The position numbers were made by a program, and so were the translations under genes. A stretch of 64,000 bases of DNA from Tolypothrix carrinoi HA7290-LM1 (GTDB lineage Bacteria; Cyanobacteriota; Cyanobacteriia; Cyanobacteriales; Nostocaceae), in NCBI GenBank assembly GCA_019358935.1, contig JAHHIK010000029.1, forward strand, positions 8,734 through 72,733, given 5' to 3'. Positions 1 to 63,280 of this stretch are shown here, one piece after another. The notes beneath the pieces are model-generated. The model did no database searches. It saw only the letters and a program-made list of their open reading frames with translations, and had not been told where the DNA came from. Numbering within the stretch: the stretch's first letter is position 1; each line of letters begins with the position of its first letter.

Positions 1-2558
1 TATCCTCTTGCCAATCCATCACCACCAATATAAAGTTCACTGACAACTCCTACAGGTGTTGGTTGTAAATTGCGATTCAAAACATAAATCTGAGTATTAT
101 CGATAGGACGACCGATGGGGATACTGCTTGCTTGCTCTGGCAATAAACTCGTGTCGTAGTAAGTGGCGTTGGCGGAAACTTCCGATGAGCCGTAAAGGTT
201 GATTAGTTTTGCAAATGGTATCAATTCTCGGAAAGTTTGAACTAACTTAACAGAAAGTGCTTCTCCGCTAGTTATCCAGAGTTTTAGCTGTGATAATTTC
301 TTGGTCAGATGACTGTAATTATCAAGAAGTAAGCGCAGTAATGAGGGTACAAGTATGATACGAGTAACTTTGTGATGCGCTAGAGTTTCTATAAATAATT
401 GCGGGTCTAGTATAGTTGCATTGCTGATAATTACTGTAGGAATTCCTTGAAGTAAAGGAGCAAAAATTTCCCAGACAGAATCTACAAAGCTAATAGCTGT
501 TTTCTGACAACAAACTTCTCCTTGGGTAAAAGGATAGGTTTTCCATAACCAGTGTAAGCCGTTGACTGTACCGCGATGAGTGCCAAGAACACCTTTAGGA
601 GTTCCGGTTGAGCCAGAAGTGTAGATAATATAGGCGAGATTATCAGATGAAGAGGTGCTAATGGGGTTTTCTGGACTTTCTTGAGCGATTTCGTCTTTGT
701 GGATATCCAAGCAAACAGTTTTAGCAGAGGATAATGACAGTTTTTCTAATATCTCTTGTTGGGTAATTAACACTGATGCTTGGGAATCAGAGAGCATAAA
801 ATTCAGACGCTCCACTGGATAACTTGGGTCAAGGGGAATGTAGGCTCCGCCAGCTTTGAGGACACCTAAAATTCCCACCACCATATCTATGGAGCGTTCC
901 AAACATATAGCAACCAGGGTTTCTTTTGTTATACCCTGTTTTTGTAAATAATGTGCAAGCTGATTAACTCTATGGTTAAGTTGACGATAAGTCAGTTCCT
1001 CAGACTGGCTAATTAATGCTAAAGAGTCAGGGGTTCGCTCGACTTGCTGCTCAAATAATTGATGCAGAGATACATCTTGAGGATAATCTGCACGAGTTTG
1101 ATTAAACTTAAATAATAGTTGCTCTCGCTCAGAAGTAGTTAGTAACGACAACTCACTAAGGCGCTGCTCTGGATTAGTAACGATATTTTCCAACAAAGTC
1201 TGGAAATTGTTTATAAATTGGGTAATCGTTGTTGAATCAAAAATATCCGTGTTGTACTCCAAATATCCTGTTAATCCCTCTTGAGATTCAGACATTGATA
1301 GGAAAATATCTAGTTGAGCGGTACCGCTATCAAATTCCAAAGTACGCAAAGTTAATCCAGACACTTCTTGCACAGATGTTGGAGTATTTTGCAGCACAAA
1401 CATGACTTCATAAAGTGGATTTCGACTTAAGTCACGTTCGGGGTGCAATTCTTCTACAAGCATCTCGAAAGGCAAATCTTGATGTGCATAAGCATCGAGA
1501 GTCACCTCACGTACTCGATGTAGAAGTTCGCGGAAACTGGGATTACCATTGAGGTTATTACGTAACACCAAAGTATTAACAAATAAACCCAGCATTCCTT
1601 CTAATTCTGCGCGGTTGCGGTTGGCAATCGGAGAACCAATCACAACATCTTCTTGGTCTGTGTAGTGGTATAATAGTATGTTAAATGCTGCCAGCAAACT
1701 CATAAATAGAGTGGCATCTTCTTGCTGGCTTAATTGTCCGAGTGCATCAGTCAGATTTTTTGAGAATGTAAAGTATTGCTTGGCACCAGCAAAACTTGTG
1801 ACGGTAGGTCGCGGACGGTCTGTGGGTAATTGTAGTACAGGTAACTCACCCTGAAGTTGTTGCTGCCAATAATTTAATTGGGTTGCGAGAAATTTACCTT
1901 GGATGCGATCGCGTTGCCAAATGGTAAAATCTGCATACTGAATGGGGAGTTCAGGCAAGGGAGAGGGCTGATTTGTAGAGAAAGCAGCGTACAGCGTTGA
2001 CAATTCCCGCAGGAACACATTACAAGACCATCCATCCGTGATAATATGGTGCATGGTCACAAGCAAAACGTGTTCTCCTTTACTCAAGCGCAGTAAAGTT
2101 GCTCTGACTAAAAGACATGAAGCTAAATTAAAAGGTTTTTTTGCTTCCCGTGCTGAAAGTTCTTTGACTTCTGCTTCCCAATCTTTACCAGACAAATGCT
2201 CAAGATTAATCATGGGTAAATCCCAAGTTAATCCTGATGCAATATTTTGCACTGGCTCTCCATTGACAAGCGTAAAAGTTGTGCGCCAAACTTCGTGACG
2301 CTTGAGGATTTCATTCAGACTTTGCTGAATAGCTGTGATATTAAGTTGACCTTTGATATGAAAAGCGATGGGAATATTGTAGAATGAGCTTCCGTGGTAA
2401 AGCTGGTCAATAAACCACAGCCTTTGTTGAGAAAAAGATAAGGGAATATTCTGAGAAGATTGACGTTTGGGAATAATATCAGTTTGAAATTTACCTCCCT
2501 TCCATTTTTCTAAAAGGGCTTTTTTTGCAGGTGATAAATTAGAGTTTTTTCTATCCAT
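1..2558 (-). CDS. NRPS (C-A..., partial, runs off window); A domain predicted beta-alanine-activating
   Basis: Absent from ORF track; read by hand from ATG at 2558: MDRKNSNLSPAKKALLEKW...PLSFSQQRLWF, HHIITDG, YTSGSTGTPKG, SFVDSVWEIF, LWITSGE, NLYGSSEVSAN; specificity code about VDWIISLAN(K). Confidence 0.93.
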   Translation of the reverse strand, partial: MDRKNSNLSPAKKALLEKWKGGKFQTDIIPKRQSSQNIPLSFSQQRLWFIDQLYHGSSFYNIPIAFHIKGQLNITAIQQSLNEILKRHEVWRTTFTLVNGEPVQNIASGLTWDLPMINLEHLSGKDWEAEVKELSAREAKKPFNLASCLLVRATLLRLSKGEHVLLVTMHHIITDGWSCNVFLRELSTLYAAFSTNQPSPLPELPIQYADFTIWQRDRIQGKFLATQLNYWQQQLQGELPVLQLPTDRPRPTVTSFAGAKQYFTFSKNLTDALGQLSQQEDATLFMSLLAAFNILLYHYTDQEDVVIGSPIANRNRAELEGMLGLFVNTLVLRNNLNGNPSFRELLHRVREVTLDAYAHQDLPFEMLVEELHPERDLSRNPLYEVMFVLQNTPTSVQEVSGLTLRTLEFDSGTAQLDIFLSMSESQEGLTGYLEYNTDIFDSTTITQFINNFQTLLENIVTNPEQRLSELSLLTTSEREQLLFKFNQTRADYPQDVSLHQLFEQQVERTPDSLALISQSEELTYRQLNHRVNQLAHYLQKQGITKETLVAICLERSIDMVVGILGVLKAGGAYIPLDPSYPVERLNFMLSDSQASVLITQQEILEKLSLSSAKTVCLDIHKDEIAQESPENPISTSSSDNLAYIIYTSGSTGTPKGVLGTHRGTVNGLHWLWKTYPFTQGEVCCQKTAISFVDSVWEIFAPLLQGIPTVIISNATILDPQLFIETLAHHKVTRIILVPSLLRLLLDNYSHLTKKLSQLKLWITSGEALSVKLVQTFRELIPFAKLINLYGSSEVSANATYYDTSLLPEQASSIPIGRPIDNTQIYVLNRNLQPTPVGVVSELYIGGDGLARG
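1905..1912. repeat. HIP1 octamer GCGATCGC (representative of many copies)
   Basis: Recurrent through the window (e.g. 1905, 4752, 5016) despite low GC; cyanobacterial signature. Confidence 0.9.
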
Positions 2559-2714
2559 TGCTGATAAATTTAATTTACAAGCCAAATCATCAAATGAAAT
2601 CGATTTTATTCAATCTAAGACAGATTGAAAGTTTATTTCTGGAAAAGGGTTCTGTGAATCCATCTGTTGCATTTATTTTTCACATGGTATAACTCTGCAA
2701 TTATATTAATTATA

Positions 2715-3485
2715 TTATTGGGTGAGGGATGGTTTTCGACAAACAAAGCAAGCCATACCTGCACTATCGTCAGCTCCAAAATCTTTAAGATTATAGTGAC
2801 TAATGTCTGTAAAACCCACTTTCTCTAGAGCAGACTGCACTTCTGTTAAAAAGAAATCTTTTCTTAGCCAAGTAGTGTCTGCACGCTTCCAAATACTTTC
2901 TATCAATTCAAATCCGGTGACTTTTATTTCCCACATCCTTTCTTCCGGTTTATAGTGGAATATTTCAATCAAGGCACATTCGTCATTAACATTAACATGA
3001 TCGAAAAGTGGGGGAGCAATTTCATGTAACCAATCTGTTATGGGTATTGTGAACACGAATATTCCATTATCTCGCATTGCTGCGTAAACGTTTTGGAAAA
3101 CGGCTGTCAACTCTTCAATATTTAGGATAAAAAGTAAAACATCTTTTGAAAAAACACCATCAAAGCTTGGTGGTAACTTAAACTCACGTACATCACCAAG
3201 GATAAATTCACTCTCAGGTGCGTTTTTTCGGGCATACTCTAACAGTTCTTTAGAAGCATCAAGTCCAGTCGCTTGATATCCTCTGATATGAAGTTGTTGT
3301 ACGAACTGGGCGCTACCACAACCGAGATCGAGAATATCCGCTCCCTTAGGAAGATACTGTAACATTAATTGTTCTAAAGCAGGAATGACGAATTCAACTA
3401 TTTCTTGATGCGAAGTCTTAAGTTCGTTTTGCATTCGAGCAAACGGCTCATAATTTGGAAAAGGAGAATAAATTGCTAAAGACAT
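2715..3485 (-). CDS. Class I SAM-dependent methyltransferase (tailoring)
   Basis: ILDLGCGS motif I, GLDAS motif II, FDGV; 256 aa, inside the cluster. Confidence 0.9.
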   Translation of the reverse strand: MSLAIYSPFPNYEPFARMQNELKTSHQEIVEFVIPALEQLMLQYLPKGADILDLGCGSAQFVQQLHIRGYQATGLDASKELLEYARKNAPESEFILGDVREFKLPPSFDGVFSKDVLLFILNIEELTAVFQNVYAAMRDNGIFVFTIPITDWLHEIAPPLFDHVNVNDECALIEIFHYKPEERMWEIKVTGFELIESIWKRADTTWLRKDFFLTEVQSALEKVGFTDISHYNLKDFGADDSAGMACFVCRKPSLTQ

Positions 3486-3530: not shown

Positions 3531-6500
3531 TTATTCATTATTGTTCAAAAAAACTTCTACTTCTTCTTCAGATAATTCTTCAATCTTTTCTAACAGAAGT
3601 TTTTCAATCATTTCTGCTTGTAATCGTGGAATCATTCCTTGCGATAAAAGGTCACGTAGTGGTAAGTCTACGGGAAATCTTCCTCGCAATCGAGAAACTA
3701 ATTTAGTTGCAATGAGGGAGTCTCCTCCTAACTCATAGAAATTATCGTAAATACCAACTTCCGCAATTCCAAGTACTTCTTGCCATATTTCTGTAATTTG
3801 CTTTTCTAACTCATTTTTCGGAGCAATATAGGTATTACTAAGGTTAGGTCTGCAATAACGCGGTGATGAATCTAATTGATTTAAATATTTTGAATTTGCT
3901 AAAGAGTCGAGATTAAATGTATGGTTTTTTCTAGCATTAATATCTACTGTAGAAATAATAATCTGAGTTCTTTCCCTTAAATAAAATATTCGCTTAAATA
4001 CTTCTACAGCTTCTGTTGGGGTAATAGCTAATTCTGACCCAGATACTTGCTCAAGTATTGTTTCTTCTTGGTTTGCATTCAGTTGTAATTTATCCCAATT
4101 TATAGTATACCACGACAAAGAATTATTTTGATTATGTCGGTTAGTAAAAATATCAATCAATTGATTACCTGCTGAATATAAGCCTAATCCAAATCCTCCT
4201 AAAATGGAAGATAAAGAAGAAAAAATTATACAAAAATCTAAGTTGATATTCTGTAAAACTTCTTCTAATACTGTAATTTTACAAACTTGTGAATCCAATA
4301 ATTTTTGTAATTCTATTTTACAAATTTCTGGAATGGAACCAAATATATTTTCGCGCTTTATTCCGGCTGAATAAATGACCCCGTTAATTTGTCCAATATT
4401 TTCGTATGCAAGGCTTTGAGACATTTGCTCATAATTAGTTGTATCTGCACGCATTAGCAAAATTTTTGCACCTAATTTCTCTAATGCAAGCAATTGTTGA
4501 ATTTTGTAACTCACTTCATCATCTGGAGTATGAGTTTCAAGCCATTGTGAGAAATCATCTTTTTCTGGGAAAGCTAAATCCTCAATAAATATGAGTTGTG
4601 CTTGGAAAGTTTTTGTTAAATATTCTGCAAGCACAACTTCAATACTTTCTAAACCACCAGGAAACAGGTAAACACCCTGTTTTCTCAATGGTGTTTTTTC
4701 GTTAACAACTGACTGCAAGCAAACTGGCTCAAATGTTTGTATCCAACGGTAGCGATCGCGATAAGCAACTACCATGTCTGAGGATACAGAGGTTAACTCA
4801 TCCAAAAGTTTGTCAATAATATTACTCTCACAATCTTCTTGTCCTCTCTCTGCGTCTCTGTGGTTAGTTAAAGCAATATCAATACATCGACATGTAATAT
4901 TAGGATACTCTTGAGGAATGACTTTACATAAACCTAATATTGCTGCTTTTTCTGGGTCTAGTTTTTCATTCCCATTGACCTCTTGGATGTTGTTCGATAC
5001 AACCCAAAGTTGTAAGCGATCGCTAATTTTCAGCTTACTAAGGCTCTGCGTTAAAAATAGTAAACTGTTGAATTCTAAATAATTTTCTGCTTGACGATTT
5101 TCAACTTTAGAACTTACGCTCCATAAATAAGCAATGTGTTCGGGGTTTTGGCCTAATGATATTAATTTTTTAAGTAAGGTATCATAGTCTTCATTTTTGC
5201 ATGGATTAATTGTATAAATACCCACACTGAGTTTGCTAAACTGCTCTCCTTTTTGAACAGTAATGACATTTTTACCTTGATTTTTAAACGCATCAATTAG
5301 TTTTTTTCCTACTCCCAAATCATCCACAAAAAACAGCCATTTTTCTTCTGTAGATTTTATTTGGTCGGAGGATGAATGAGGCAGCAAAGAGCGCTTCCAT
5401 GAAAGAACATAAAACCAGTCAGCAATATCTTGTTTCTTATCTAATGTTGTTGGTCTTCTATTTACAGAAGGAGATGGAGATTTCGCATCAATCCAGTACC
5501 TTTGTCGTTCAAAGGGGTAAGTCGGCAAAGGTAGACGATGACGCTGCTCGTGGGTATAAAATCCCGACCAATCTATTTCTACACCATCAAGCCACAGCCG
5601 ACCTAATATTTGTAATAAAAAGCTAACATCCGATTGTTGCTCTTTAACATGGCGTAACGAAGTCAATACCTGTTGTTTGGTATTTTTATCTAAATGCTGT
5701 GTTGTTAATGTGCTTAAAGTTCGCCCTGGTCCTACCTCGAAAAAAATGCCTTTAAACTGCTGTATCAATTGGGATATACCATCTGAAAATCTCACAGTTT
5801 GTCGTAAATGTTGACTCCAGTAGTTAGGATTTGTAGCTTGTTCATCCGTAATCCAACTACCAGTTACATTAGAAATAAAGCGTATGCGTGGTGGATTCAG
5901 TTTGACTGTTTTCACCAATTGCACAAATTCCTCTAATATTGGTGACATCATGTGAGAATGGAAGGCATGAGACGTATGCAACAGCCGACATTCAATTTCT
6001 TGAGACGATAATTGTTTTTGTAATGTAGCGATCGCTTCGTTTGTTCCGGAAACTACACAAGAAGATGGGCTGTTAACAACTGCAATTTGTAGAGAATTTT
6101 TATACAACGTCTGTGCAGACAGTAGCAACTGCACATCTTTTTCTGGCAGCCTAATTGCCAGCATACCTCCTGTGGCTACTTGTTGCATCAGTTGTCCCCT
6201 TTTTGCCACAATGAATACGGCATCTTCGAGAGAAAATACACCTGCGATCGTCGCTGCGACATATTCCCCAATACTATGACCAATCATTGCTTCTGGACGT
6301 ATCCCCCATGACATCAATAACTGAGCCAAGGCGTACTCTGTAACAAATAATGCGCTTTGGGTGAAGGCTGTTTGTTGTAGTTGCTTTGAAGCAGTTTCGG
6401 TATCTTGTTCGCTGGGGTAAAGTAAGGAGCGGATATCAAGACCAAGGTGGGGTTGCAAAATCTGGGCGCAAGTATCTACGTGTTTTTTAAACGTCGGTTC

Positions 6501-8159
6501 TACTTCATATAGTTCCCGACCCATGTTTGCATACTGTGACCCTTGTCCGGAAAACATGAAAATGACTGGCTGTTCTCTATGCTCCTGGCATACAGTAAAA
6601 ATCCGTTCCTGCTCCTGTGTTTCCAAAACGCTTACAGCATCTTTAACACTTTGACACACCAACATTCGGCGATGGTTAAAAGCTCTACGACCCACTTTTA
6701 GAGTATGAGCGACATTGGCTAAATTTATATCTGGATGCTGTTTTAAATACGTAACCAAATTTGCAGTCGCAGTTTCAAGTGCTGAGCTGGTTTTAGCTGA
6801 TACTAATATCAATTGCCAAGGTCTAGAGTCATCACAATATTTAATCTCAGGGGCTTCTTCCAGAATCACATGGGCATTAGTTCCACCAAAACCTAAGGAA
6901 CTAACTCCTGCTAGACGGGGAGTATTATTAGCTTTCCACTCAGTAAGTTTAGTATTGACGTAGAAGGGACTATTTACAAAATCAATTTCAGGATTGGGAG
7001 CTTCAAAATTTAAGCTAGGAGGTATTTGTTTATATTTCAATGCTAAAACGGTTTTGATAAGACTCGCTACACCAGATGCTATATCTAGATGTCCGATGTT
7101 TGGTTTTACTGAACCTATAGCGCAGAAGCCATTTCTCTGTGTAAAAGCACGAAAAGCTTTAGTGAGCGCAGCAATTTCCACTGGATCTCCAGTAGCAGTT
7201 CCAGTTCCATGAGTTTCTATATAAGAAATATCATCAGCATTAATTCCAGCATTTGCCAGAGCCTCTACAACAACTTCAGCCTGACCATTTACACTAGGTG
7301 CTGTATAGCTAACTTTTAAGGAACCGTCATTATTGATTGCTGAACCTTTAATAACTGCATGAATATAATCTCTATCTGCAATAGCATCTTTTAATCTTTT
7401 TAAGACGACTATTCCAAGTCCACTGCCGAAAATAGTACCCTGTGCTTTAGCATCAAAGGCTCGACAATGACCATCAGGAGACAAAATTCCGTCTTCTTGA
7501 TAGAAGTAACCTGACTTTTGTGGAACTACAATCGTAACCCCACCTGCTAAAGCAATATCACACTCTTCATCTAGTAGACTTTTGCAGGCTAAATGTACAG
7601 CAACTAATGAAGTAGAACAGTAAGTTTGAATACCTACACTTGGCCCTTTTAAATTTAATTTATACGAAATATTTGTGGTCAAAAAATCTTTATTCAGAGT
7701 ATAGTTAGTATAAATATTTATTAAATTAACGTTTTCATATATATTGTGAAAAAAGTAACTATTTGTACTTATACCAGCGTAAACCCCAATCAAACCTTTA
7801 TAAGTTTCTGGATCATATCCAGCGTTTTCAAGAGATGACCAGGCACATTCCATGAAGAGGCGATTTTGGGGGTCCATTACTTCAGCTTCTCTAGGGCTGC
7901 AACCAAAGAACCTAGCATCAAAATACTCAATATCTTCTAGTACAGGTGCTGCTTTAACATAATTGGGATCCTTTAAAACTTCCTCTTCCAGATTTAAATC
8001 TACTAAGTCATGATTGGAGAAAAATGAAATAGACTCAACACCATTTTGAAGATTATGCCAAAAATCATCAAGATTTTTGGCACCAGGTAAATGACCGGAC
8101 ATTCCTACTATTGCTATATCTATATTTCCTGTTTGTTCTTGTTTTATTTGGGTAGTCAT
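3531..8159 (-). CDS. Type I PKS module KS-AT(malonyl)-KR(degenerate)-ACP
   Basis: KS TYCSTS/HGTGT/GHLD; AT GHSIG and HAFH; KR Rossmann motif altered to FPGGLESIE; ACP GGDSL. Confidence 0.95.
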   Translation of the reverse strand: MTTQIKQEQTGNIDIAIVGMSGHLPGAKNLDDFWHNLQNGVESISFFSNHDLVDLNLEEEVLKDPNYVKAAPVLEDIEYFDARFFGCSPREAEVMDPQNRLFMECAWSSLENAGYDPETYKGLIGVYAGISTNSYFFHNIYENVNLINIYTNYTLNKDFLTTNISYKLNLKGPSVGIQTYCSTSLVAVHLACKSLLDEECDIALAGGVTIVVPQKSGYFYQEDGILSPDGHCRAFDAKAQGTIFGSGLGIVVLKRLKDAIADRDYIHAVIKGSAINNDGSLKVSYTAPSVNGQAEVVVEALANAGINADDISYIETHGTGTATGDPVEIAALTKAFRAFTQRNGFCAIGSVKPNIGHLDIASGVASLIKTVLALKYKQIPPSLNFEAPNPEIDFVNSPFYVNTKLTEWKANNTPRLAGVSSLGFGGTNAHVILEEAPEIKYCDDSRPWQLILVSAKTSSALETATANLVTYLKQHPDINLANVAHTLKVGRRAFNHRRMLVCQSVKDAVSVLETQEQERIFTVCQEHREQPVIFMFSGQGSQYANMGRELYEVEPTFKKHVDTCAQILQPHLGLDIRSLLYPSEQDTETASKQLQQTAFTQSALFVTEYALAQLLMSWGIRPEAMIGHSIGEYVAATIAGVFSLEDAVFIVAKRGQLMQQVATGGMLAIRLPEKDVQLLLSAQTLYKNSLQIAVVNSPSSCVVSGTNEAIATLQKQLSSQEIECRLLHTSHAFHSHMMSPILEEFVQLVKTVKLNPPRIRFISNVTGSWITDEQATNPNYWSQHLRQTVRFSDGISQLIQQFKGIFFEVGPGRTLSTLTTQHLDKNTKQQVLTSLRHVKEQQSDVSFLLQILGRLWLDGVEIDWSGFYTHEQRHRLPLPTYPFERQRYWIDAKSPSPSVNRRPTTLDKKQDIADWFYVLSWKRSLLPHSSSDQIKSTEEKWLFFVDDLGVGKKLIDAFKNQGKNVITVQKGEQFSKLSVGIYTINPCKNEDYDTLLKKLISLGQNPEHIAYLWSVSSKVENRQAENYLEFNSLLFLTQSLSKLKISDRLQLWVVSNNIQEVNGNEKLDPEKAAILGLCKVIPQEYPNITCRCIDIALTNHRDAERGQEDCESNIIDKLLDELTSVSSDMVVAYRDRYRWIQTFEPVCLQSVVNEKTPLRKQGVYLFPGGLESIEVVLAEYLTKTFQAQLIFIEDLAFPEKDDFSQWLETHTPDDEVSYKIQQLLALEKLGAKILLMRADTTNYEQMSQSLAYENIGQINGVIYSAGIKRENIFGSIPEICKIELQKLLDSQVCKITVLEEVLQNINLDFCIIFSSLSSILGGFGLGLYSAGNQLIDIFTNRHNQNNSLSWYTINWDKLQLNANQEETILEQVSGSELAITPTEAVEVFKRIFYLRERTQIIISTVDINARKNHTFNLDSLANSKYLNQLDSSPRYCRPNLSNTYIAPKNELEKQITEIWQEVLGIAEVGIYDNFYELGGDSLIATKLVSRLRGRFPVDLPLRDLLSQGMIPRLQAEMIEKLLLEKIEELSEEEVEVFLNNNE
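5491..6569. repeat. Duplicated AT-domain coding block, copy 1 (pairs with 10192-11270)
   Basis: Near-identical nucleotide sequence at constant offset 4701 (e.g. atccagtacctttgtcgttcaaaggg and ccttgtcc.gaaaacatgaa) with a short divergent patch near 5915-5960. Confidence 0.9.
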
Positions 8160-8204: not shown

Positions 8205-11200
8205 TTAGTTACTTTGCATTTTTATTTGCCTTCTTCTCTGCCCTCGGCTTAGTCTTTGTTCAAAAGCATTTTCCTGAGATTCTTCAGGAGTAAAAATCTT
8301 TGCCATAGAGCTGATATTCGGACATTCATAAAGTTTAGCAACAGAAATCTTTGAATTAAATCCCTTATTTAAGATTGCAATAACTTGAATCCCTATAAGA
8401 GAATCACCACCAACTTCAAAAAAATTATCATAGATTCCTATCAGTTCAATTCCAAGAACATCTTGCCAGATATTGGCAATCTTTTGCTCAATTTCATTTC
8501 GAGGAGCAACATAATCATTACTTAGTTCAGGTCGGGGATATTTGGAGTAGGATGGATTGACAGTCTCTAAAAATTCTAGGACTTGTGTCTCTTTGTAAGA
8601 ATTGTCCTTTTTGAGTGTATTTAAGAAGTCAGAGGTAGATACTACAACTTGAGGTATTGTATTTCCTAAAATGCGTAGAAAAGCATCTACACCTTCATTC
8701 GGCAATATACCTTGTTGAAGATTTTCTATTCGCAATTGTTGGAGTCGTTGGGGCAATTCTGTGTTCGCCGCCATTCCAATTTCTTGCCAAGTATCCCAGT
8801 TAATACTTGTAGTAAATCTGCCCTGTTTTGAAGCATTACAATGAGCAAAGGCATCAAGAAAAGCATTTGCTCCACAATAGTCTACCTGTCCAAATTCCCC
8901 TAAAATTGAGCTTTTTGATGATGCTAGAATCAAGAAATCTAACTGAATATCTTTGACAATTGCATTAATAACTATTGTCCCCTTGACTTTCGCAGCCAGA
9001 ATACTTTCTGCTTCTGCTTGAGTTTTTCCCTGAATTATACCGCCTCCAGAAACTCCAGCAGCATGGATGACACCATTAAGTTGACCAAATTGTTGTTGAG
9101 CTTGAGCAACAGCACTTTGCATTTGTTCTATGTTGCTCACATCAGCACTCATCATCAAAACTTCTGCACCTAAGTTTTCGAGTTCTTGAACTTTGCGAAT
9201 TTTGCAGCTAGTGCTATCAGTCTCATCATGAGTAGTGAGCCATTGTTCCCACTCATTTTTTTTTGGCAAAGCAGAACGTCCTATCAACACTAGTTTTGCT
9301 TGTACAGTTCGAGCTAAGTATTCTGCCAAAACAAGTCCGATACCTCCGAGTCCACCTGTAATTAAATAGACTCCTTTTTCTTTTAGTCGAGGCTTTTCTA
9401 TTTTAGCTTTATCGAAGCGCACAGGCTCAAAACTCTGTACCCAACGATTCAAACCTCGATAAGCAATTAGCTTTTCAGAATCAGAAACTGTCAGTTCTGC
9501 CAGTATTTTTTCTACAAGTGTTTCTTCTTGCCAACTGCCGTGTTCTGGAAGTATAACATCAATACTACGACAGTTTATATTTGAATATTCTTGAGATATA
9601 ACTTTAATTGGTCCAAGTAAAGTGGCTTTCTCCGGACAAAGCATTTCAGTTCCACTTACTGACTGTAGGTCATTAGAAATAACTGTGATTTCTACTTCAT
9701 CAGTAGTTTCTTGTCTTCCCAAAGCTTGGGCAATAAATAGGAGACTGTAAAATCCTGTTGTTTGAGCTTTGTCAACTTGTTCAATTTCTAATTCTTGGTC
9801 ACTACTAGGTGTGACACTCCATAAATGAACAATCGTTTTTGGCAACTTTTTTTGTTTTAAAAGCTCCTGCATAAGAAGATCATAATCATGATTTTTTTCT
9901 GGATTGATAGTATATTGAGACTCATTTAGTAGGGTAAAGTTTTCACCAACTTTTACAGTAATTATATCCTGGTTTTGTGTTTCTAATTGTTTAACCAACT
10001 TGCTACCCAAGCCACACTCATCGATAAACACCAAAGTGCAAGATTTTTGAGATGCTAATTCTTGATGTTCGAGTTGTACAGGAGGTAAAGAAGGTTTCCA
10101 AAAAGGGATATAAAACCAGTCGGCTATATCAGGTTTTTTACCCAGTGATATTGAAGTGTGACGATCGCCTTGTCCTTGCTTGTTAGGTTCAATCCAGTAC
10201 CTTTGTCGTTCAAAGGGATAAGTCGGCAAAGGTAGACGATGACGCTGCTCGTGGGTATAAAATCCCGACCAATCTATTTCTACACCATTAAGCCACAGCC
10301 GACCTAATATTTGTAATAAAAAGCTAACATCCGATTGTTGCTCTTTAACATGGCGTAACGAAGTCAATACCTGTTGTTTGGTATTTTTATCTAAATGCTG
10401 TGTCGTTAATGTGCTTAAAGTTCGCCCTGGTCCTACCTCCAAAAAAATGCCTTCAAACTGCCTTAACAGTTGCGATATTCCATTTGAAAATCTTACAGTT
10501 TCTCGTAAATGTTGACTCCAGTAATTAGGATTTGTGGCTTGTTCATCCGTAATCCAACTACCAGTTACATTAGAAATAAAGCGTATGCGTGGTGGATTCA
10601 GTTTGACTGTTTTGATAGCCTCAATAAATGCTGACAATATTGGTTCCATCATTTGGGAATGGAAGGCATGAGATGTATGCAACAGTTGACATTCAACTTG
10701 TTGAGAGGATAATTGATTTTTTAGTATAGCGATCGCTTCGTCTGTTCCAGAAACAACACAGGACGATGGGCTGTTAATAACTGCGATTTGTAGATATTTT
10801 TTATACAACGTTTGTGCAGACAGCAGCAACTGCACATCTTTTTCTGGAAGCCTAATTGCCAGCATACTTCCTGTGGGTACTTGTTGCATCAGTTGTCCCC
10901 TTTTTGCCACAATGAATACGGCATCTTCGAGAGAAAATACACCTGCGATCGTCGCTGCGACATATTCCCCAATACTATGACCAATCATTGCTTCTGGACG
11001 TATCCCCCATGACATCAATAACTGAGCCAAGGCGTACTCTGTAACAAATAATGCGCTTTGGGTGAGGGCTGTTTGTTGTAGTTGCTTTGAAACAGTTTCA
11101 GTATCTTGTTCGTTGGGATAAAGTAGGGAGCGGATATCAAGACCGAGGTGGGGTTGCAAAATCAGAGCGCAAGTATCTACGTGTTTTTTAAACGTCGGTT

Positions 11201-37719: not shown

Positions 37720-37722
37720 ATC

Positions 37723-38944: not shown

Positions 38945-39196
38945 TTATTGCTGCACGAGAATAGCAGTTTTACTTTCAATTAAATTAGCGATAGAGTTTA
39001 TTGTGCGGAAATTTTCAAATTCTAAGTCTTCGTTTTCAATGACAATCTGAAACTCTTGCTCTACAAACAAAACAAGTTGCATGGCAAACATAGAATTGAC
39101 AAACCCTAGAGCAAAAATGTCTTCATCTGGTTGCAAATCATGATTGCCGAAAAATTTTGAAAGGAAAGTTTTTATTCTAACTTGAATTTGGTTCAT
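38945..39196 (-). CDS. Standalone acyl carrier protein (FkbJ/ZmaD-like)
   Basis: 83 aa, DIFALGFVNSMFAMQLVLFVE; NS-type phosphopantetheine motif typical of glycolate-extender ACPs. Confidence 0.92.
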   Translation of the reverse strand: MNQIQVRIKTFLSKFFGNHDLQPDEDIFALGFVNSMFAMQLVLFVEQEFQIVIENEDLEFENFRTINSIANLIESKTAILVQQ

Positions 39197-39211
39197 TAGT
39201 CTTGATTATTC

Positions 39212-54845: not shown

Positions 54846-55380
54846 TTTTTCGACAGCTAGATGCACCCTAACACACTACTCATCTGACTCTCACTCTCAC
54901 AAGAGAAAAATAAGCAGCAAATCCTTAATAATAACACAAAGTCTCAGCTTTGTTTGTCTACGCACGATTATAAATTACTAGGTTCTGTATTTTTGCCAGA
55001 TGCCTAAAATCCGAGAATTTCGGAGATAACACTAAATATTGATGCGATCAACAAACTTAATGTTAGTTTAACTATTGTTCAATCTGACTGTAGAGGCAGT
55101 TAATACTGTCCCTGTAATCGTGAAAATATGCCTAAAAGCATATGTTTTTATGAGATTTATCACGTTATGGAGTATTTTCATCACATACCTCCTCTGATTA
55201 CTACTTCTCATCTACGAGACTTATTAATCTCAAAATCTCAAGTTTAGTAGTCAACTAAACTAAGGTTGCTTAGTCGAGTTGGAAAAGATATTTACTTCCT
55301 TAATTGTAGGTCTCGACCATTGATTATTAGTTCAGCCAACCACCAATAGCACCTAAATGCTAATACTAGCGACTTGTTTA

Positions 55381-55836: not shown

Positions 55837-55855
55837 AATGATAATTGCTTTCACT
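55837..55855. promoter_or_regulatory. Putative Fur box upstream of the TonB receptor
   Basis: aatgataattgctttcact, about 60 bp upstream of the start codon. Confidence 0.6.
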
Positions 55856-55915: not shown

Positions 55916-58684
55916 ATGAAGTTAGATAAATTGTTTCAAAGCCTGCTGCTGACAGGTGCGGTTGTTCTTTTGGTCGGCACTCCTGCGACATGTGAGGAAG
56001 TACGAGAAGATAAAATAGGCAAATCTTCTACCCAGACGGTAGGGAAATCTATAGATGATAAAGTTGCAGTTACAGATACAAAATCTCCAGTATCCGCTCA
56101 AAGGAACAGAAAGCCCCGACATTTCCAGTCTCAAATAGCAAGTTCTCTGGGTCGGGTAAAGTCGGATGAATCCAGTAAAAACATTCCCCAACTGAGTGAA
56201 ATCGAGCTTCCCGCGACTAGCGCTAAAATGCTGGTACAGACCCCAACACCAAGCCCAGCACCTGCAACTCAAGTTGTACCAATAACGTCCGTGAAAGCAA
56301 ATCCCACTCCCCAAGGTGTGGAGGTGATTTTAGAGACAACCCAAGGGAATCAACTGCAAGTAGCAAATCGCAGTGCAGGTAACAATTTTATTGTTGATAT
56401 AACTGGCGGGCAGTTGCGGTTAGCTTCGGGCGATGCTTTCACATTTCGTTCCGAGAAACCGCTTGCGGGAATTACTGAGATAACAGTTGCGAATGTTGAC
56501 GCAAATACTGTGCGGGTGACGGTGGTAGGTGAGAAGGCTTTGCCCACAGTTGAGCTATTTGATGATAATGCAGGGCTGGTTTTTGCTGTAGCATCTACAG
56601 AAACCGCAACACAACCACCCCAAACACCGCCAGCAGAAGAAAAGCCAGTAACTGAGACACCGCAGGAGAAACCACTTGACTCGCAGCAGGATGAGCCGAT
56701 TGAGTTGGTAGTGACGGGTGAACAGGATGGCTATCGCGTTCCCAATGCCTCAACTGCTACAAGAACCGACACACCGTTGCGTGATATTCCCCAGTCGATT
56801 CAGGTCATACCGCAACAGGTCATTAAAGACCAGCAATCAACTCGCCTAACAGAAGTGTTAAAAAATGCGCCCGGTGTCGTGGTAGGAAATCGAAGCCCTC
56901 GCGATCCTCTCAATATCATCAAAATTCGGGGCTTTGATGCTACTTATGATACTCTACTCAATGGGGTACAAGACCGTTCAATCGGGAATGTCGGGTTTGG
57001 CTCAAATATTGATCGGGTTGAAGTCCTCAAAGGACCCGCTTCGGTTTTGTTCGGTCAAGGTGGACTTGGCGGCAGGGTCAATTTGGTAACAAAGCAGCCA
57101 TTGCGCGATCCGTTCTACTCCGTGGAAGCCTCTGCTGGCAGCTACAATTTCTATAATGGTGCAATTGATTTATCCGGTCCGTTGAATGATAGTAAAACGG
57201 TGTTGTATCGCCTGAATGCTTCTGCTGGAACAAACGAAAGCTTTATTGATTTCTATGAGCAACAGCAATATCTAATTGCACCTACTTTAAGCTGGCAAAT
57301 TAGTGATAGAACAAAGCTGACCCTAGAAGCAAGCTATTCCCTTATAGAGGGATCCTATGATTTTGGGATACCCGCACGGGGAAGCATACTGCCTAACCCC
57401 AATGGCAAAATTCCTCGTAATCGTTCAGTGAGTGAGCCTAATTTGAATGACACCTCTAACGGTGTATTCCGGGTTGGCTATAATTTGGAACATCGCTTTA
57501 GCGATAACTGGCAAGCGCGGAGCGTTTTTCAGACTTCTTTGTTTAGGCTCAGACGAGATACTGTGTTTTCTTTCGGATTACAAGATGATTTGCGTACCTT
57601 AGAAAGAGGCGTTGAGAATTTTGACTACGATGAAAATTTTTATAATCTAGACAATTTTGTGGTCGGCAAGTTTGCAACAGGTAGTATCAAGCATGAGCTA
57701 GTCGCTGGATTTAACCTGAATAGAAATGACACTAATTCCAAAAGTCTTTTCAATGACACTACTCCTCTCGATGTTTTCAATCCTGTTTATGGAACTGCTA
57801 CAGCAGCTAGTACTCCAGATTTTGATATCGAAAATACGTTGCAACAATTAGGTTTTTATCTTCAAGATCAAATTACCCTAGCAGAAAACTTCAAAGTACT
57901 TTTGGGTGGACGCTTTGATATTGCCAATCAAGAGGCTAAGGATTTAATTGCCCAAACAAACGACTTTAAGCAAACAGAAGCTTTTAGCCCTCGTGTTGGC
58001 ATTGTTTACCAGCCGATTAAACCGATCTCACTCTACGCCAGCTATAGTCGTTCATTCAATCAGGCGGTATCTACATTCGGTCCAGCTCTACCGGAACCGG
58101 AGCGAGGAACGCAGTATGAAATCGGGGTTAAAGCAGATTTGACTGACCGATTAGCTACAACCTTGGCATTTTATGATTTGACTCGCACCAATCTCTCAAC
58201 CACAGATCCAAACAATCCACAACGAACTATTCAAGTTGGGGAACAGCGCAGTCGTGGGATTGAGTTTGATATTTCTGGCGAAATCTTGCCAGGGTGGAAT
58301 ATCATTGCTGGCTATGCCTACACTGATGCAGTAATTACAGAAGACAATGATTTACCAGTAGGTAATCTGCTGAATAATGTGCCAAGACATGCGCTCAACC
58401 TATGGACAACTTACGAAATTCAATCCGGTAGTTTAAAAGGATTAGGCTTCGGTTTAGGAGCTTTTTACTACGGAGATCGGCAAGCCGACTTAGCCAACAC
58501 GGCTGAGTTACCTAGTTATATACGCACAGATGCAGCTATTTATTATAAGGGGGACAATTACCGAGCTGCGATCAATATCAAGAATTTGTTCGACACTGAT
58601 TATTTTGTCTCTGCACAAAACGTGAATCGGATTATACCTGGCGATCCCCTGACAATACAGGGTACAATTTCCTGGCAGTTTTGA
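55916..58684 (+). CDS. TonB-dependent siderophore receptor with N-terminal AMIN domain
   Basis: Signal peptide, AMIN-like region, IELVVTG TonB box, plug RDIPQSIQV/IRGF/VEVLKGPASVLFG, C-terminal NLFD...ISWQF. Confidence 0.96.
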   Translation: MKLDKLFQSLLLTGAVVLLVGTPATCEEVREDKIGKSSTQTVGKSIDDKVAVTDTKSPVSAQRNRKPRHFQSQIASSLGRVKSDESSKNIPQLSEIELPATSAKMLVQTPTPSPAPATQVVPITSVKANPTPQGVEVILETTQGNQLQVANRSAGNNFIVDITGGQLRLASGDAFTFRSEKPLAGITEITVANVDANTVRVTVVGEKALPTVELFDDNAGLVFAVASTETATQPPQTPPAEEKPVTETPQEKPLDSQQDEPIELVVTGEQDGYRVPNASTATRTDTPLRDIPQSIQVIPQQVIKDQQSTRLTEVLKNAPGVVVGNRSPRDPLNIIKIRGFDATYDTLLNGVQDRSIGNVGFGSNIDRVEVLKGPASVLFGQGGLGGRVNLVTKQPLRDPFYSVEASAGSYNFYNGAIDLSGPLNDSKTVLYRLNASAGTNESFIDFYEQQQYLIAPTLSWQISDRTKLTLEASYSLIEGSYDFGIPARGSILPNPNGKIPRNRSVSEPNLNDTSNGVFRVGYNLEHRFSDNWQARSVFQTSLFRLRRDTVFSFGLQDDLRTLERGVENFDYDENFYNLDNFVVGKFATGSIKHELVAGFNLNRNDTNSKSLFNDTTPLDVFNPVYGTATAASTPDFDIENTLQQLGFYLQDQITLAENFKVLLGGRFDIANQEAKDLIAQTNDFKQTEAFSPRVGIVYQPIKPISLYASYSRSFNQAVSTFGPALPEPERGTQYEIGVKADLTDRLATTLAFYDLTRTNLSTTDPNNPQRTIQVGEQRSRGIEFDISGEILPGWNIIAGYAYTDAVITEDNDLPVGNLLNNVPRHALNLWTTYEIQSGSLKGLGFGLGAFYYGDRQADLANTAELPSYIRTDAAIYYKGDNYRAAINIKNLFDTDYFVSAQNVNRIIPGDPLTIQGTISWQF

Positions 58685-58698
58685 TTAATCAGATACCC

Positions 58699-59691
58699 AT
58701 GAGAATTTCTGTACGTTACCTTACTTATCTATTGTTCTTGGTAGCATTGACGTTTACTTTTGTTTCGGCTTGTAGCATAAGTATCGATCAACGTGTTACA
58801 ACTACCAAACAGCCAGTGGAAGATTGCCGAGTCGTGCAACATGCAATGGGTAAAACGTGCATTCCTCGCAACCCTCAACGAGTAGTAACTCTGTGGACAG
58901 CTACTTTGGCTAATAGCCTAGCATTGGGTATCAAACCTGTTGCATCTGTATACAACATAGGTGAACCTCTCCAAAAATATCTTCGAGGTAAAGTAGATGG
59001 AGTTGAACCTGTTGGAAGCCTAACAGAACCAAACTTAGAGAAGATTTTGTTACTTAAACCTGATTTAATTATATCGAACACTCGGTTGCAAAATATCTAT
59101 AAGCAGCTATCTTACATTGCGCCCACTCTTGTGTTGAGCCTTCGTTCCCCGCCATCTCCTTGGAAGCAAAACTTGGAAGACCTTGCTAAAGTGCTAGATA
59201 AGGAAGAGGCTAATCAGCAATTGATTGACCAATATTGGAGGCGGATTGAAAAACTAAAACTTGCCTTGGGCGTTGGCGCAGCCTCTCCAAAGGAGAATCG
59301 CCGTCTCCAGATGCAAGTATCCGTTGCCACTGTGGATCAAACCTATGGAATATATATCTATGGAACAAAACATCCAACTGGTGTAGTTCTGAAAGATATT
59401 GGACTACAACGCCCATCGGCACAAAGTGGAGATTTCTTCACAAGAAGCAATATTTCTCAGGAGCATTTGTCTGATATTGATGGTGATGTTTTGTTCCTTT
59501 CCTATAGGGGAGAAGAAGCAGGTAAAGAGGCTTTAGAAAAGTTACAACAATCTCCTTTGTGGCAAAAGCTGAAAGTGGTTCAACAAAATCGGGTTTATCT
59601 GGTAGATTCTGACCACTGGTACGCTTTTGATATTTTGGCAATGAATGCAGTCATTGATGACTTATTTAAATACCTAGTCAACACACCGTAA
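58699..59691 (+). CDS. Iron-siderophore ABC transporter substrate-binding lipoprotein (FecB/FhuD-like)
   Basis: Lipobox VSAC, PQRVVTL, LGIKPV, PNLEKILLLKPDLI, LSYIAPT, PLWQKLKVVQ; alternative TTG start at 58681. Confidence 0.93.
   Translation: MRISVRYLTYLLFLVALTFTFVSACSISIDQRVTTTKQPVEDCRVVQHAMGKTCIPRNPQRVVTLWTATLANSLALGIKPVASVYNIGEPLQKYLRGKVDGVEPVGSLTEPNLEKILLLKPDLIISNTRLQNIYKQLSYIAPTLVLSLRSPPSPWKQNLEDLAKVLDKEEANQQLIDQYWRRIEKLKLALGVGAASPKENRRLQMQVSVATVDQTYGIYIYGTKHPTGVVLKDIGLQRPSAQSGDFFTRSNISQEHLSDIDGDVLFLSYRGEEAGKEALEKLQQSPLWQKLKVVQQNRVYLVDSDHWYAFDILAMNAVIDDLFKYLVNTP
59273..59296. repeat. 24-bp small dispersed repeat inserted in-frame in a HIP1 site
   Basis: GCG|ttggcgcagcctctccaaaggaga|ATCGC; removal gives ttgggcgatcgccgt (LGDRR). 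Confidence 0.8.
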
Positions 59692-59695: not shown

Positions 59696-60070
59696 ATGCC
59701 CAAGCACATTCTATTCGTCTGCAAATCCTGCCAATGCTCCTCCCAAGAAAAACCGGAAAACCAACCCGCCGATGGCACTATTTTACTTGACAAACTTAAC
59801 AGTTTATGGAGCGAATATTTTCCATCAGACGAACTTGAAATTAAACCCGTTGAATGCCTGTGGGCTTGCAGTCAAGGCTGTGTTGTATCTGTATCAAGCC
59901 ACGACAAACCCACCTATCTTTTCGTCAATCTTCCCCCAGAAGAAAGCCCAACAGCGTTACTAGAATTTATGCAATTGTATATCAATCATAAAGGTGCTGT
60001 AGCTTGGAAACGATTTCCTGAACTTTTACAGTCTGCTATTTTCGCGCAAATTCCGCCTGTAAGTAAGTAG
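59696..60070 (+). CDS. DUF1636-family Cys-rich predicted metal-binding protein
   Basis: FVCKSC, VECLWACSQGCVV, KPTYLF, AQIPP. Confidence 0.85.
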   Translation: MPKHILFVCKSCQCSSQEKPENQPADGTILLDKLNSLWSEYFPSDELEIKPVECLWACSQGCVVSVSSHDKPTYLFVNLPPEESPTALLEFMQLYINHKGAVAWKRFPELLQSAIFAQIPPVSK

Positions 60071-60275: not shown

Positions 60276-62087
60276 TCATCTCACCCCCGACTGCACCCGC
60301 CACAAATTAGTATAAATCCCATTCTTACCCAACAATTCTTCATGGGTTCCCGACTCAACTAATTTCCCATATTCCATCACATAAATGCGATCGGCATTAC
60401 GGATAGTGGAAAGACGATGGGCGATCGCTATCGTTGTTCGATTCACAGTAATCCGTTCCAAAGAACGCTGAATCGCCGCTTCCGTTTCATTATCTACTGC
60501 TGATGTAGCTTCATCTAAAACTAGGATAGGCGGATTTTTCAAAACAGCCCTAGCTATAGCAATTCTTTGCCGTTGTCCACCAGATAATTTTTGACCTCTT
60601 TCCCCAACTATTGTCTCATAAGCTTGAGGAAGTCGCACAATAAAATCATGCGCTTCGGCAACTTTTGCAGCTTCTACTATTTGTCTATCACTAGCATCAA
60701 AAGAACCATAGGCAATATTTTCCGCAACCGTTCCATGAAATAAAAATACATCCTGACTTACCAAGCCAATACTGTGACGTAAATCATGTAAATTGAATTT
60801 TTGGATATCAATTCCATCAATAGTAATAGTTCCAGAAGAGATATCGTAAAATCGCAATAGTAATTTAACTAAAGTGCTTTTCCCAGAACCTGTAGAACCA
60901 ACAATTGCAATAGTTTCTCCTGCGGGAATATGTAAAGACAATTTTTTAAGAATTGGCTCTCTGTTTGGGTAGGAAAAACTAACGTGCGTCAATTCAACTT
61001 CCCCACGCACTTTATCAATAGGTAGAGCTATGTCTCCTGTAGTAATATGAATAGGAGTATCTAATAAATCCATGATACGATTGGTAGAAGCCATAGACCT
61101 TTGATACTTATCAAATATTTCTCCTAATTCTACTAAAGGCCACAACATTCTCTGGACTAAAACAATTAGGACACTATAATTTCCAATAGATATCTTCCCA
61201 TTATATGCTGCCATCCCTCCCCAAAATAACAAGGCAACGAATCCGACTAAAACGAGCATCCTAATTAAGGGAATAAATGCAGCCGACAGTTTAATTGCTT
61301 TAGTATTGCTTTTTCGATATGCTTCACTTTCCCCTGCTAACCTAGCACTTTCATAAGCCTCAGCAGTGAAACTTTTAATTGTATTAATTCCACTCAAATT
61401 ATTTTCTAGTCTGGAATTCAAAAAACTTACCCTTTCCCGAACATCCGCATAACGGGATTCTAGACGTTTTTGATAATTAAAAGACCCCCAAATAATAAAT
61501 GGCATCGGCAACATTGCAACCAAGGTAATAGAGAAAGGTAAAATTAATATTGCACCACCAACTAAAATGATAATTGAGGTGGTAATTTGGATGATGTCAT
61601 TGGCTCCATAATTCAAAAAATCTTCTAATTGGTTGATATCATCATTCAAAATTGACATCAAACCACCAGTACTACTTTCTTCAAAGTAAGCTGAATCTAA
61701 TTCTTGTAAATGATTGTAAGCATCCAAGCGCAAATTATGCTGAATATTTTGGGCTAAATTGCGCCAAAGCCTATCAAAACCATACTGAGAAAGTGATTCG
61801 AGTATCCAAATAATAACAGTTACTCCCGAAAGCAGTAAAAACTGCCAAAATATATCCTTTACACCCAACTTTGCAATGACAGACTCTTGCTGTTCCACAA
61901 GTATATCCACCGCAATCCCAACTAACCACGGTGGTGCTAAGTCCAAAATCGTATTGATTATAGACAATAATGTTGCTAGCCAAATTTGTTGACGGTACTG
62001 GCTTCCATAGTTTAACAAACGTTGTAACGGATAGCTTGACTTTCTAACCTTTTCAGATACTCTATGAGATTGTGATAATATTGTCAC
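60276..62087 (-). CDS. ABC transporter, fused permease/ATPase (exporter fold)
   Basis: Hydrophobic N-terminal half; GSTGSGKST, LSGGQRQR, LVLDEATS, IAHRLST. Confidence 0.95.
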   Translation of the reverse strand: MTILSQSHRVSEKVRKSSYPLQRLLNYGSQYRQQIWLATLLSIINTILDLAPPWLVGIAVDILVEQQESVIAKLGVKDIFWQFLLLSGVTVIIWILESLSQYGFDRLWRNLAQNIQHNLRLDAYNHLQELDSAYFEESSTGGLMSILNDDINQLEDFLNYGANDIIQITTSIIILVGGAILILPFSITLVAMLPMPFIIWGSFNYQKRLESRYADVRERVSFLNSRLENNLSGINTIKSFTAEAYESARLAGESEAYRKSNTKAIKLSAAFIPLIRMLVLVGFVALLFWGGMAAYNGKISIGNYSVLIVLVQRMLWPLVELGEIFDKYQRSMASTNRIMDLLDTPIHITTGDIALPIDKVRGEVELTHVSFSYPNREPILKKLSLHIPAGETIAIVGSTGSGKSTLVKLLLRFYDISSGTITIDGIDIQKFNLHDLRHSIGLVSQDVFLFHGTVAENIAYGSFDASDRQIVEAAKVAEAHDFIVRLPQAYETIVGERGQKLSGGQRQRIAIARAVLKNPPILVLDEATSAVDNETEAAIQRSLERITVNRTTIAIAHRLSTIRNADRIYVMEYGKLVESGTHEELLGKNGIYTNLWRVQSGVR

Positions 62088-62283
62088 GACTATTTATTGT
62101 TGGTATTTGTGTACTTGATGTGGAACAGCTTAATTTTGTAATTTGCACATTGTGATTTATTTAAGTTATTGTAGTGTGGGCATCGTACCCGCTTATTGTA
62201 TGCAAATTAAGTGCCTAAAAGCTTAACAAAATGATTATTTATTTGACATTAAACTTTTGAAACATCTGACTCAAGCTTCCCAT

Positions 62284-63280
62284 TCAACTTTCACACCCAG
62301 ACTTAGATAAAAACTCTGCTTGTCGCTGCGAAATCAAAGTTATTATACTCTCTAATTCCGGTTCAGTCTCGTATAGCTCATGCAAAATATTTAACGCTTC
62401 TATAGCTTTATCTAAGGGGTAATACCAGCCAAAATCATTCCGACAATATCTCCATCCCGGAATTGATTTCGCATGAAGTCTAAAAATATCACTTTTATTT
62501 AATTCTTCTGGCACATATAGCGCTACACGCTCTCCTTTAAATTCAATTCGCAACTTGATTTTTTCAGGAGTTTGTACATTCTTTCGTTGATGTGATGCAA
62601 CACAACGCGAACACAACCAATTATATGGTAAAGGTGCTTGCCATCCCATCTGTATTGCTTCTGGACAGATAGAATGAAGGATTAACTGACAGTCAACTAA
62701 CTTAAGTCCAGATTCTTGCACTTGTTTTAAACTTTGTTGGTTGAAGAAAGGCAGAGGGCAGGAGGCAGCTATGCTGAAGGAGCAATCGGATGGGGATTCA
62801 AACCCCAACCGATTGAATCCACCGTGTAGACGGTGGGGTTTTATACCCAGTTGGCTCCAGCCAGAAGGCTGAATCAAAGACATAATTTATACCTTCTGCC
62901 CTCTGCCCTCTGCCTTCTGCCTTCCGCCGAAGGCGGATAACTAAGTTATTTTCAAACTCTATTGTCTGATTGCACAAAACACAAACAATATGATAATGAA
63001 TGATAGAGTCAGTATTTAACTCATATTTTTTATGTCCTTCTGTGAATTCTAATTCGCGTAAAAGCCCCATTTGTGTCATCAGTTTCAGGTTACGGTAAAC
63101 TGTAGACAAACTTATTTTTTCACCACGCTGTAATAAAGAATCCCAGACATCTTCTGCACTGATATGATTAGCCTTGGGTAAATTCTGAAATATTAGGAAA
63201 ATCATCTCGCGTTGAGCAGTAAACCGCCAACCTTTGGCATTGAGTTTTTCCTTTAACGAGCCAGGAAGATCCATAGACAT
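62284..63280 (-). pseudogene. fur: Fur-family regulator with C-terminal extension, split by a 196-bp insertion
   Basis: RFTAQR, HISAED, SLSTVYRNL, HIVCVLC in 63280-62936; continuation QQSLKQVQESGLKLVDCQLILHSICP in another frame from 62739; deleting 62740-62935 gives one 266-aa ORF. Confidence 0.88.
62740..62935. mobile_element. MITE-like structured insertion with inverted heptamer-repeat arms
   Basis: Left aaggcagagggcaggaggcag versus right ccttctgccctctgccctctgccttctgcctt; internal hairpins ggggattcaaacccc, ccaccgtgtagacggtgg, ccgccgaaggcgg; GC-richer than flanks; edges uncertain by a few bases. Confidence 0.8.

Follow-up and report, generated by a model that had tools for sequence, protein, structure and literature searches.

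The 64,000-nucleotide stretch of Tolypothrix carrinoi HA7290-LM1 analysed here (G000:C29:8734-72733 of the host genome, hereafter the window, in whose coordinates its parts are given) carries a cluster of nonribosomal peptide synthetase (NRPS) and polyketide synthase (PKS) genes. This assembly line starts with a FAAL domain, occupies positions 1-54866 of the minus strand and stands head-to-head with genes for iron uptake. It belongs to a cluster family that is of siderophore type, real and widespread, and its product very probably acts as a metallophore. Among related clusters the fronts differ widely and the end is far better conserved; in sequence, the constant part is a cassette of a PKS with a dead or deleted ketoreductase (KR), a beta-alanine (beta-Ala) module, a thioesterase (TE) with a Cys nucleophile (Cys-TE) and a cytochrome P450 (P450). 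We propose that the cluster makes a lipopeptide-polyketide siderophore that would use an N-hydroxylated pyridone or lactam ring as its main ligand, and we put the probability of this full model at about one half.

Genes in the window were called from lists of open reading frames (ORFs) and Pfam/NCBIfam scans. The codes of the adenylation (A) domains were obtained by motif and by alignment, and the substrates named are those that we take these codes to specify. With the P450 as query across GTDB genomes, 97 relatives were found, 79 of them at listed loci, nearly all in heterocyst-forming genera by name. Of the related clusters, 23 were read completely or in large part, and these underlie all counts out of 23. 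The following parts of the conserved end lie in the window:

1..2585, minus: terminal NRPS, C-A(beta-Ala)-T-TE with TE motif GHCYGG, first 861 of 1374 residues (A code, motifs)
3531..8159, minus: last PKS, KS-AT(GHSIG)-KR0-ACP, NADPH loop broken (GGLESIE), invariant in the family (motifs)
12929..14671, minus: PanP-type aspartate 1-decarboxylase for beta-Ala supply, within the conserved end (TIGR03799, 623.8 bits, cut-off 606.1)

Beyond the left edge of the window, the terminal NRPS runs on to G000:C29:7194 and ends T-TE. It is followed by the P450 (C29:5799-7175), an SDR, a Suc_Fer-like gene, a MATE pump, a further SDR and a broken TEII. The 79 P450 loci also yielded matches to the TE (76), MATE (60) and Suc_Fer (52). 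The terminal A code was of beta-Ala type in all 75 loci with a Cys-TE reading frame. At these 75 loci the preceding PKS was out of view in 5 and had no visible KR in 2, and not one of the 68 visible last KRs had an intact GGxGxxG motif. Among the 23 clusters read, 20 of 21 last KRs were broken, the sole exception lying in a fragmented PKS region (G517), and the other KRs were intact in 54 of 60. The KR0 of the last PKS is hence predicted to leave the beta-ketone in place. The TE nucleophile was Cys in 120/120 close relatives, the best 120 of 577 proteins, versus 22 of 150 distant representatives. Seven weaker TE matches were examined as well. Six of them had a Cys-TE, two P450s and a receptor, and in five of these six sister clusters a KS-AT-ACP without KR preceded the last module; one sister cluster held a salicylate synthase-type gene and an aryl ligase, both confirmed by Pfam. 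The seventh had a Ser-TE, with no P450 or receptor in view. The sister subfamily (L188-L205; G401, G748, G730, G753, G661, G703) features a GWCYGG TE and two P450s, several members carry a salicylate-type starter, and two show an altered last A code (SFWIxSFANK) that suggests a substituted beta-amino acid.

The elfamycins kirromycin and factumycin share with the window cluster an Asp decarboxylase, a beta-ketoacyl-beta-alanyl carrier intermediate, a release hydrolase with a Cys nucleophile and a P450, whose role in ring oxidation is a prediction for the window cluster. Kirromycin biosynthesis employs the Asp decarboxylase, KirB and KirHI, and the P450 KirOI makes the ring double bond (PMC5818483). 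Pyridone-forming Dieckmann cyclases act on an N-(beta-ketoacyl)-beta-alanyl thioester, and their family has a Cys-Asp-His triad (PMC4979870). In the window cluster we find a terminal beta-Ala module fed by an Asp decarboxylase and, by motif only, a beta-keto thioester handed to beta-Ala; a P450 predicted to oxidise the ring is adjacent to the terminal NRPS and conserved. As these four ingredients of the kirromycin route are fixed and the ketone is kept by two routes, we infer Dieckmann release followed by P450 oxidation. The systems differ in that kirromycin, an EF-Tu antibiotic of Streptomyces, is described as being released by the stand-alone cyclase KirHI with no TE. We saw no KirHI-family cyclase for the window cluster, where a fused type I TE would release the chain and a siderophore receptor adjoins.

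The chain would start with acyl-(methyl)Arg-[2,3-dihydroxy, methyl ketide]-D-Thr-Gly-Thr and continue with [2,3-dihydroxy ketide]-(OH)Gly-[3-OH ketide]-[beta-keto]-beta-Ala. A kirromycin-like Dieckmann condensation on the TE would free the chain as a 3-acyl-piperidine-2,4-dione, and we hold ring formation at this step to be probable. Oxidation of the ring by the invariant P450 would follow; N-hydroxylation would be its most useful form and would give a cyclic hydroxamate or an N-hydroxy-2-pyridone. A second P450, which occurs in 47 of the 79 loci and is missing from the window cluster, could do the remaining oxidation. In both P450s Ala replaces the usual I-helix Thr, which by analogy with other P450s suggests substrate-assisted catalysis. 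Fe(III) would be bound chiefly by the N-hydroxylated ring. The lipid tail and a second ligand would come from the variable front, the ligand being a diol or alpha-hydroxy amide in the window cluster and beta-hydroxy-Asp (beta-OH-Asp) or salicyl-thiazoline in relatives, and the loaded siderophore would be imported through the neighbouring TonB receptor with the help of FecB.

Precedent for such a ligand comes from fungi. The P450 TenB N-hydroxylates a pyridone, and the N-hydroxy-2-pyridones tenellin and 15-hydroxytenellin chelate Fe(III) (PMC8669486). Tenellin and leporin B thus resemble our proposal in the predicted ligand type and in P450 N-hydroxylation, and iron chelation has been demonstrated for tenellin and 15-hydroxytenellin; they differ in their origin from an iterative fungal PKS-NRPS with tetramate expansion from an aromatic amino acid, and in having no TonB uptake. 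The invariant P450 is a candidate N-hydroxylase; it counts against the proposal that we found no characterised close relative of it. That the invariant P450 is the N-hydroxylase and the optional one a desaturase is our guess.

Several points weigh against this proposal. The dead KR still has its S-Y-N catalytic residues in 61/70 loci. Known pyridone Dieckmann cyclases are stand-alone proteins distinct from TE domains (PMC4979870). The closest match of the TE in sequence and fold is the uncharacterised AB3403, and no Dieckmann cyclase appeared among its listed PDB matches; the structure model itself was weak (pLDDT 57), and the fold search returned generic thioesterases only. The window cluster holds one P450, and an N-hydroxypyridone requires two oxidations. 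Luciferase-like oxidase domains of the kind inserted in the second Gly module cleave at chain ends, and this oxidase may cleave the chain. N-O-methylated 15-hydroxytenellin did not chelate iron (PMC8669486), so that pyridones may need the N-OH to act as ligands, and the invariant P450 is best read as an N-hydroxylase. On the side of uptake, the contig of one locus (G775:C22) carries no receptor, and the receptor co-varied only weakly with the front half (partial rho 0.20, p 0.04, 20 clusters), a result confounded by linkage and kinship. The family members are also kin, and their counts are hence not independent.

Some of these observations would fit an open-chain siderophore, in which the TE merely hydrolyses and either the P450 makes an N-acyl-N-hydroxy-beta-alanine hydroxamate or iron is bound directly by the beta-keto amide and the carboxylate. 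In favour of this, the TE, a fused type I domain, has its conserved Asp in position I, the ordinary place after strand beta6, like in AB3403. A single P450 would suffice, and receptor linkage would be accounted for equally well. However, the retention of the ketone by two routes, a dead and a deleted KR, and the fixed Cys nucleophile would then go unexplained, and we consider this alternative unlikely. A TE forming a beta-lactam or beta-lactone was rejected because of the Asp in position I rather than II: the ObiF1 and SulM TEs likewise have a Cys nucleophile and ring-forming release, but carry Asp in position II and make beta-lactone or beta-lactam rings.

The iron-uptake genes on the other side of the divergent promoter, and the genes following them, are:

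55837..55853, plus: putative Fur-box-like site AATGATAATTGCTTTCA, ~80 bp upstream of the receptor, position conserved
55916..58684, plus: TonB-dependent siderophore receptor, AMIN-plug-barrel (TIGR01783, 423.6 bits, cut-off 223.5)
58681..59691, plus: FecB-like periplasmic iron-siderophore binding protein (Pfam/NCBIfam)
59696..60070, plus: DUF1636 protein (Pfam)
60276..62087, minus: ABCB-type exporter, with homologues near several related clusters (Pfam/NCBIfam)
62284..63280, minus: fur-like gene split by a repeat, probably a pseudogene and not a conserved cluster part
63582-63866, minus: DUF1636 protein, second copy (Pfam)

The original prediction had described this head-to-head arrangement of a FAAL-started line with receptor, FecB-like and DUF1636 genes and a nearby exporter, and ORF and Pfam/NCBIfam analysis bears it out. 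Its proposal of an iron-linked product is likewise supported, since homologous clusters keep the receptor. We sampled 50 of the 79 P450 loci (49 genomes), mostly picked for longer contigs; in these genomes the TE occurred at 54 places, and 150 of 215 receptor matches were listed. At 42 of the 54 TE places a receptor lay on the same contig within 80 kb, with 4.9-15.5 expected by chance, an enrichment that among kin is no clean statistic. In 33 of these 42 places the nearby receptor was the genome's best match to the window receptor. All 23 clusters read have retained it, although its position varies from upstream of the assembly line to inside or downstream of it; in G571, G560 and G764 the receptor gene stands within the line, just before the PKS-E gene and on the same strand. 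Eight of the 12 places without receptor were inspected. Of these eight, four have an assembly line that leaves the contig, three have a first gene whose start is no more than about 2.6 kb from the end of the contig, and one (G775:C22) has a contig free of receptors. Among the remaining four of the 12, three lie on stretches that are short or truncated, and the fourth is a diverged TE.

The product might instead be mainly an antibiotic, an allelochemical or a chelator of Cu, Zn or Mo, with the iron-uptake genes merely adjacent or the receptor secondary. The chemistry of kirromycin and zwittermicin is that of antibiotics, the MATE pump is common, and fatuamide A has a TonB receptor and prefers copper (PMC11877528). 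The weakness of the Fur box and the break in fur also speak for this reading. On the other hand, receptor linkage is far above chance and persists through rearrangement, and relatives hold a TauD hydroxylase, salicylate genes and siderophore-type acylases. Such accepted siderophore chemistry in relatives supports the link to iron, and we regard a product mainly for other ends as improbable.

Regarding regulation, the Fur-box-like sites claimed between the two arms found weak support. The best match to the E. coli consensus scored 13/19 and was not above shuffled sequences (P=0.43), but 8 of 9 homologous promoters that were aligned share an AATGAnAAT site ~80 bp 5' of the receptor. A sigma-70 scan gave 1 site versus 4.8 expected, and no RNA runs were listed. 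Similarly, a fur-like gene is present nearby as stated, but it is split by a repeat of ~195 bp (about 62740-62935) that has 42 matches of at least 120 bp in the genome, many of them 97-100% identical, suggesting from sequence a recently active miniature element. An extra C-terminal region seems to follow the Fur domain encoded by this gene, whose closest match elsewhere in the host genome is a 52% identical Fur on C6; the gene was not seen in the homologous regions of related clusters. The host genome yielded no NIS (IucA/IucC) siderophore synthetase.

The remainder of the assembly line reads as follows, from its start:

48363..54866, minus: starter NRPS, FAAL-ACP-C-A(basic residue, Arg-like)-MT-T (Pfam; A code DVEDLGCISK)
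47000..48349, minus: glycosyltransferase, GT28 N/C-type, accessory, in 2/23 clusters (Pfam)
46060..46908, minus: 2-oxoglutarate (2OG) hydroxylase, AspH/LpxO/OlsC family, accessory, in 4/23 clusters (Pfam/NCBIfam)
40137..45995, minus: PKS KS-AT(GYSIG)-MT-KR-ACP, probable hydroxymalonyl acceptor (Pfam, motifs)
36649..40066, minus: hydroxymalonyl-ACP cassette of four genes (Pfam/NCBIfam), namely
39212-40066, minus: 3-hydroxyacyl-CoA dehydrogenase
38945-39196, minus: ACP
37723-38907, minus: acyl-CoA dehydrogenase
36649-37719, minus: FkbH
31858..36648, minus: NRPS C-A(Thr)-T-E, for D-Thr (A code)
25386..31856, minus: NRPS C-A(Gly)-T-C-A(Thr)-T (A codes)
19186..25266, minus: PKS KS-AT(GYSIG)-KR-ACP with a terminal epimerase-type domain (Pfam, motifs)
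14717..19168, minus: NRPS C-A(Gly)-T with an inserted luciferase-like monooxygenase (TIGR04020), the oxidase being accessory (Pfam/NCBIfam)
8205..12884, minus: PKS KS-AT(GHSIG)-KR(intact motif)-ACP, of which homologues hold 0 to 2 copies (motifs)
2715..3485, minus: stand-alone methyltransferase, accessory, in 39/79 loci (Pfam)

The colinear order originally read from this line was right, with A codes for a basic (Arg-like) residue, Thr, Gly, Thr, Gly with oxidase, and beta-Ala. Pfam scans of the window also agreed that it holds no Asp-type A domain and no salicylate, catechol or flavin N-hydroxylase gene. The set of visible genes was incomplete, however, as the AspH/LpxO-family hydroxylase had gone unnamed and the line extends left of the window. 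This hydroxylase was dropped as a family marker, being found in 2 of 401 genomes at E<=1e-40. We take the MT of the first PKS, from its NVLH and LLWE motifs, to be a C-methyltransferase. The MT of the starter module (48867-49886) is PRMT-like and inserted in the Arg-type A domain, with CARM1 and PRMT6 as best PDB matches, pointing to guanidino methylation; the same combination occurs in G808. The MT type is not new, since LynB3 has it as a side-chain MT (PMC10127204). The epimerase-type domain is present in 11/23 clusters and sits in the window between a PKS ACP and a C domain. Inversion of the ketide's alpha-hydroxy carbon is a possible function. By its signature, the C domain that follows has features of a D-accepting domain.

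The original prediction proposed zwittermicin-like polyol chemistry in a glycosylated product; on such a reading, hydroxymalonyl-derived diols, the sugar and Thr hydroxyls would be the main ligands and the end only a cap. The hydroxymalonyl cassette was present in 16 of the 23 clusters, absent from 5 and out of view in 2. ATs of GYS type occurred in 16/16 cassette clusters and in 0/5 cassette-less ones, and this co-occurrence supports them as hydroxymalonyl acceptors. Each of the five cassette-less clusters has another hydroxylated or phenolic route (TauD in three, salicylate and oxidase in one, oxidase in one). Hydroxylated units may thus matter, and the diols of the window cluster may fill the slot of a second ligand. 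As defining chemistry, neither polyol nor sugar held up: the five clusters without cassette and GYS ATs still have the receptor, and no more than 2 of 23 clusters carry the glycosyltransferase, even though it has 91 relatives in 388 other genomes. Furthermore, the end is conserved far better than the front, and diols bind Fe(III) weakly at neutral pH. Diols as main ligands hence appear rather improbable. Compared with zwittermicin A itself, the cluster shares FkbH, ACP, two dehydrogenases and GYS in the AT active-site motif; the ZmaA AT has GAAH and a hydrophobic RXR where the window ATs have HAFH and a basic RXR (PMC4207774). We saw no aminomalonyl genes in the window cluster, and the hydroxymalonyl cassette is optional in the family.

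Other front elements vary as well: the oxidase was found in 5/23 clusters, TauD in 6/23, a salicylate synthase in 1/23 (G784, the genome of L083) and a PvdQ/CcsQ-type acylase in 9/23. The TauD hydroxylases accompany an Asp-type module where the code was read. A further sub-cassette recurs in fronts (L035:12217-14441; similar in G766, G768, G789, G806, G810) and comprises a Dab aminotransferase, a JmjC/cupin hydroxylase, a stand-alone C domain and a Dab-type module. In the host genome, an internal stop interrupts the TEII of the cluster (L001:331-861). On contig C155, close to TonB/ExbBD-like genes, an intact TEII is found next to a PvdQ/CcsQ-type acylase. This acylase is 73% identical to a cluster-linked acylase, and both C155 genes may serve the pathway of the window.

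According to a 2026 preprint, 24 structures of cyanobacterial siderophores are known, among them schizokinen, synechobactins, anachelins, cyanochelins, leptochelins and lusichelins, and many clusters are predicted (10.64898/2026.07.24.740629). The cyanochelins A-C are close in architecture, with a FAAL start, an NRPS/PKS line, a divergent AMIN-type receptor cassette, a sucrase/ferredoxin-like gene and, in some members, an acylase; cyanochelin B has a similar receptor cassette (10.64898/2026.07.30.741596). They differ in chelating by beta-OH-Asp (and DHABA) and in having an azole, whereas the window cluster is without Asp and cyclisation modules and finishes with beta-Ala, Cys-TE and P450. Of the cyanochelin hallmarks, it shows neither an Asp code nor TauD. 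A route to an N-terminal azole is absent as well, all C domains being HHxxxD/E with no Cys module. The anachelin hallmarks, a salicylate starter and a Tyr-derived catechol, are also missing. The cyanochelin C preprint maps acylase-linked clusters (10.64898/2026.07.24.740629), and some members of our family may figure there as predicted clusters.

As the original prediction held, no known compound could be matched; neither the end cassette nor the product was found described in the open literature, subscription journals and MIBiG lying outside the search. It is very improbable that the cluster or a close relative has an already described product: the orphan siderophore cluster of Anabaena PCC 7120 (seven NRPSs and two PKSs, structure unknown per a review; PMC6562677) would be an example, but neither a product nor PCC 7120 is named among the 79 loci listed and the best 120 of 577 proteins, and the parts of the preprint consulted describe no such end for known cyanobacterial siderophores (10.64898/2026.07.24.740629).

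The family is common in heterocyst-forming genera, lichen symbionts included, and some cluster copies are on named plasmids. Carriers named among the matches include Scytonema hofmannii PCC 7110, Fischerella muscicola PCC 7414, Calothrix sp. PCC 7716, Scytonema sp. NIES-4073 and Desmonostoc muscorum LEGE 12446. Within the host's family, the TE alone has matches in 126 of 389 genomes and 24 of 68 genera (E<=1e-60), a count that takes in the sister subfamily at about 56-65% identity. We tentatively speculate, at somewhat less than even odds, that about one third of the sampled Nostocaceae genomes encode an unrecognised siderophore class with a fixed N-hydroxy-pyridone or cyclic hydroxamate head, freely recombined lipopeptide-polyketide fronts that supply a second ligand, and matching receptors. 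As many members lack standard ligand genes, rule-based mining could overlook the ligand. What to look for is concretely defined by the prediction: a ring derived from beta-Ala whose UV and mass spectrometry (MS) signature should be distinctive, in strains that culture collections keep. If true, it would mean a new ligand type for bacterial assembly-line siderophores, a TE that forms a six-membered Dieckmann ring, and a natural combinatorial library sharing one chelating end.

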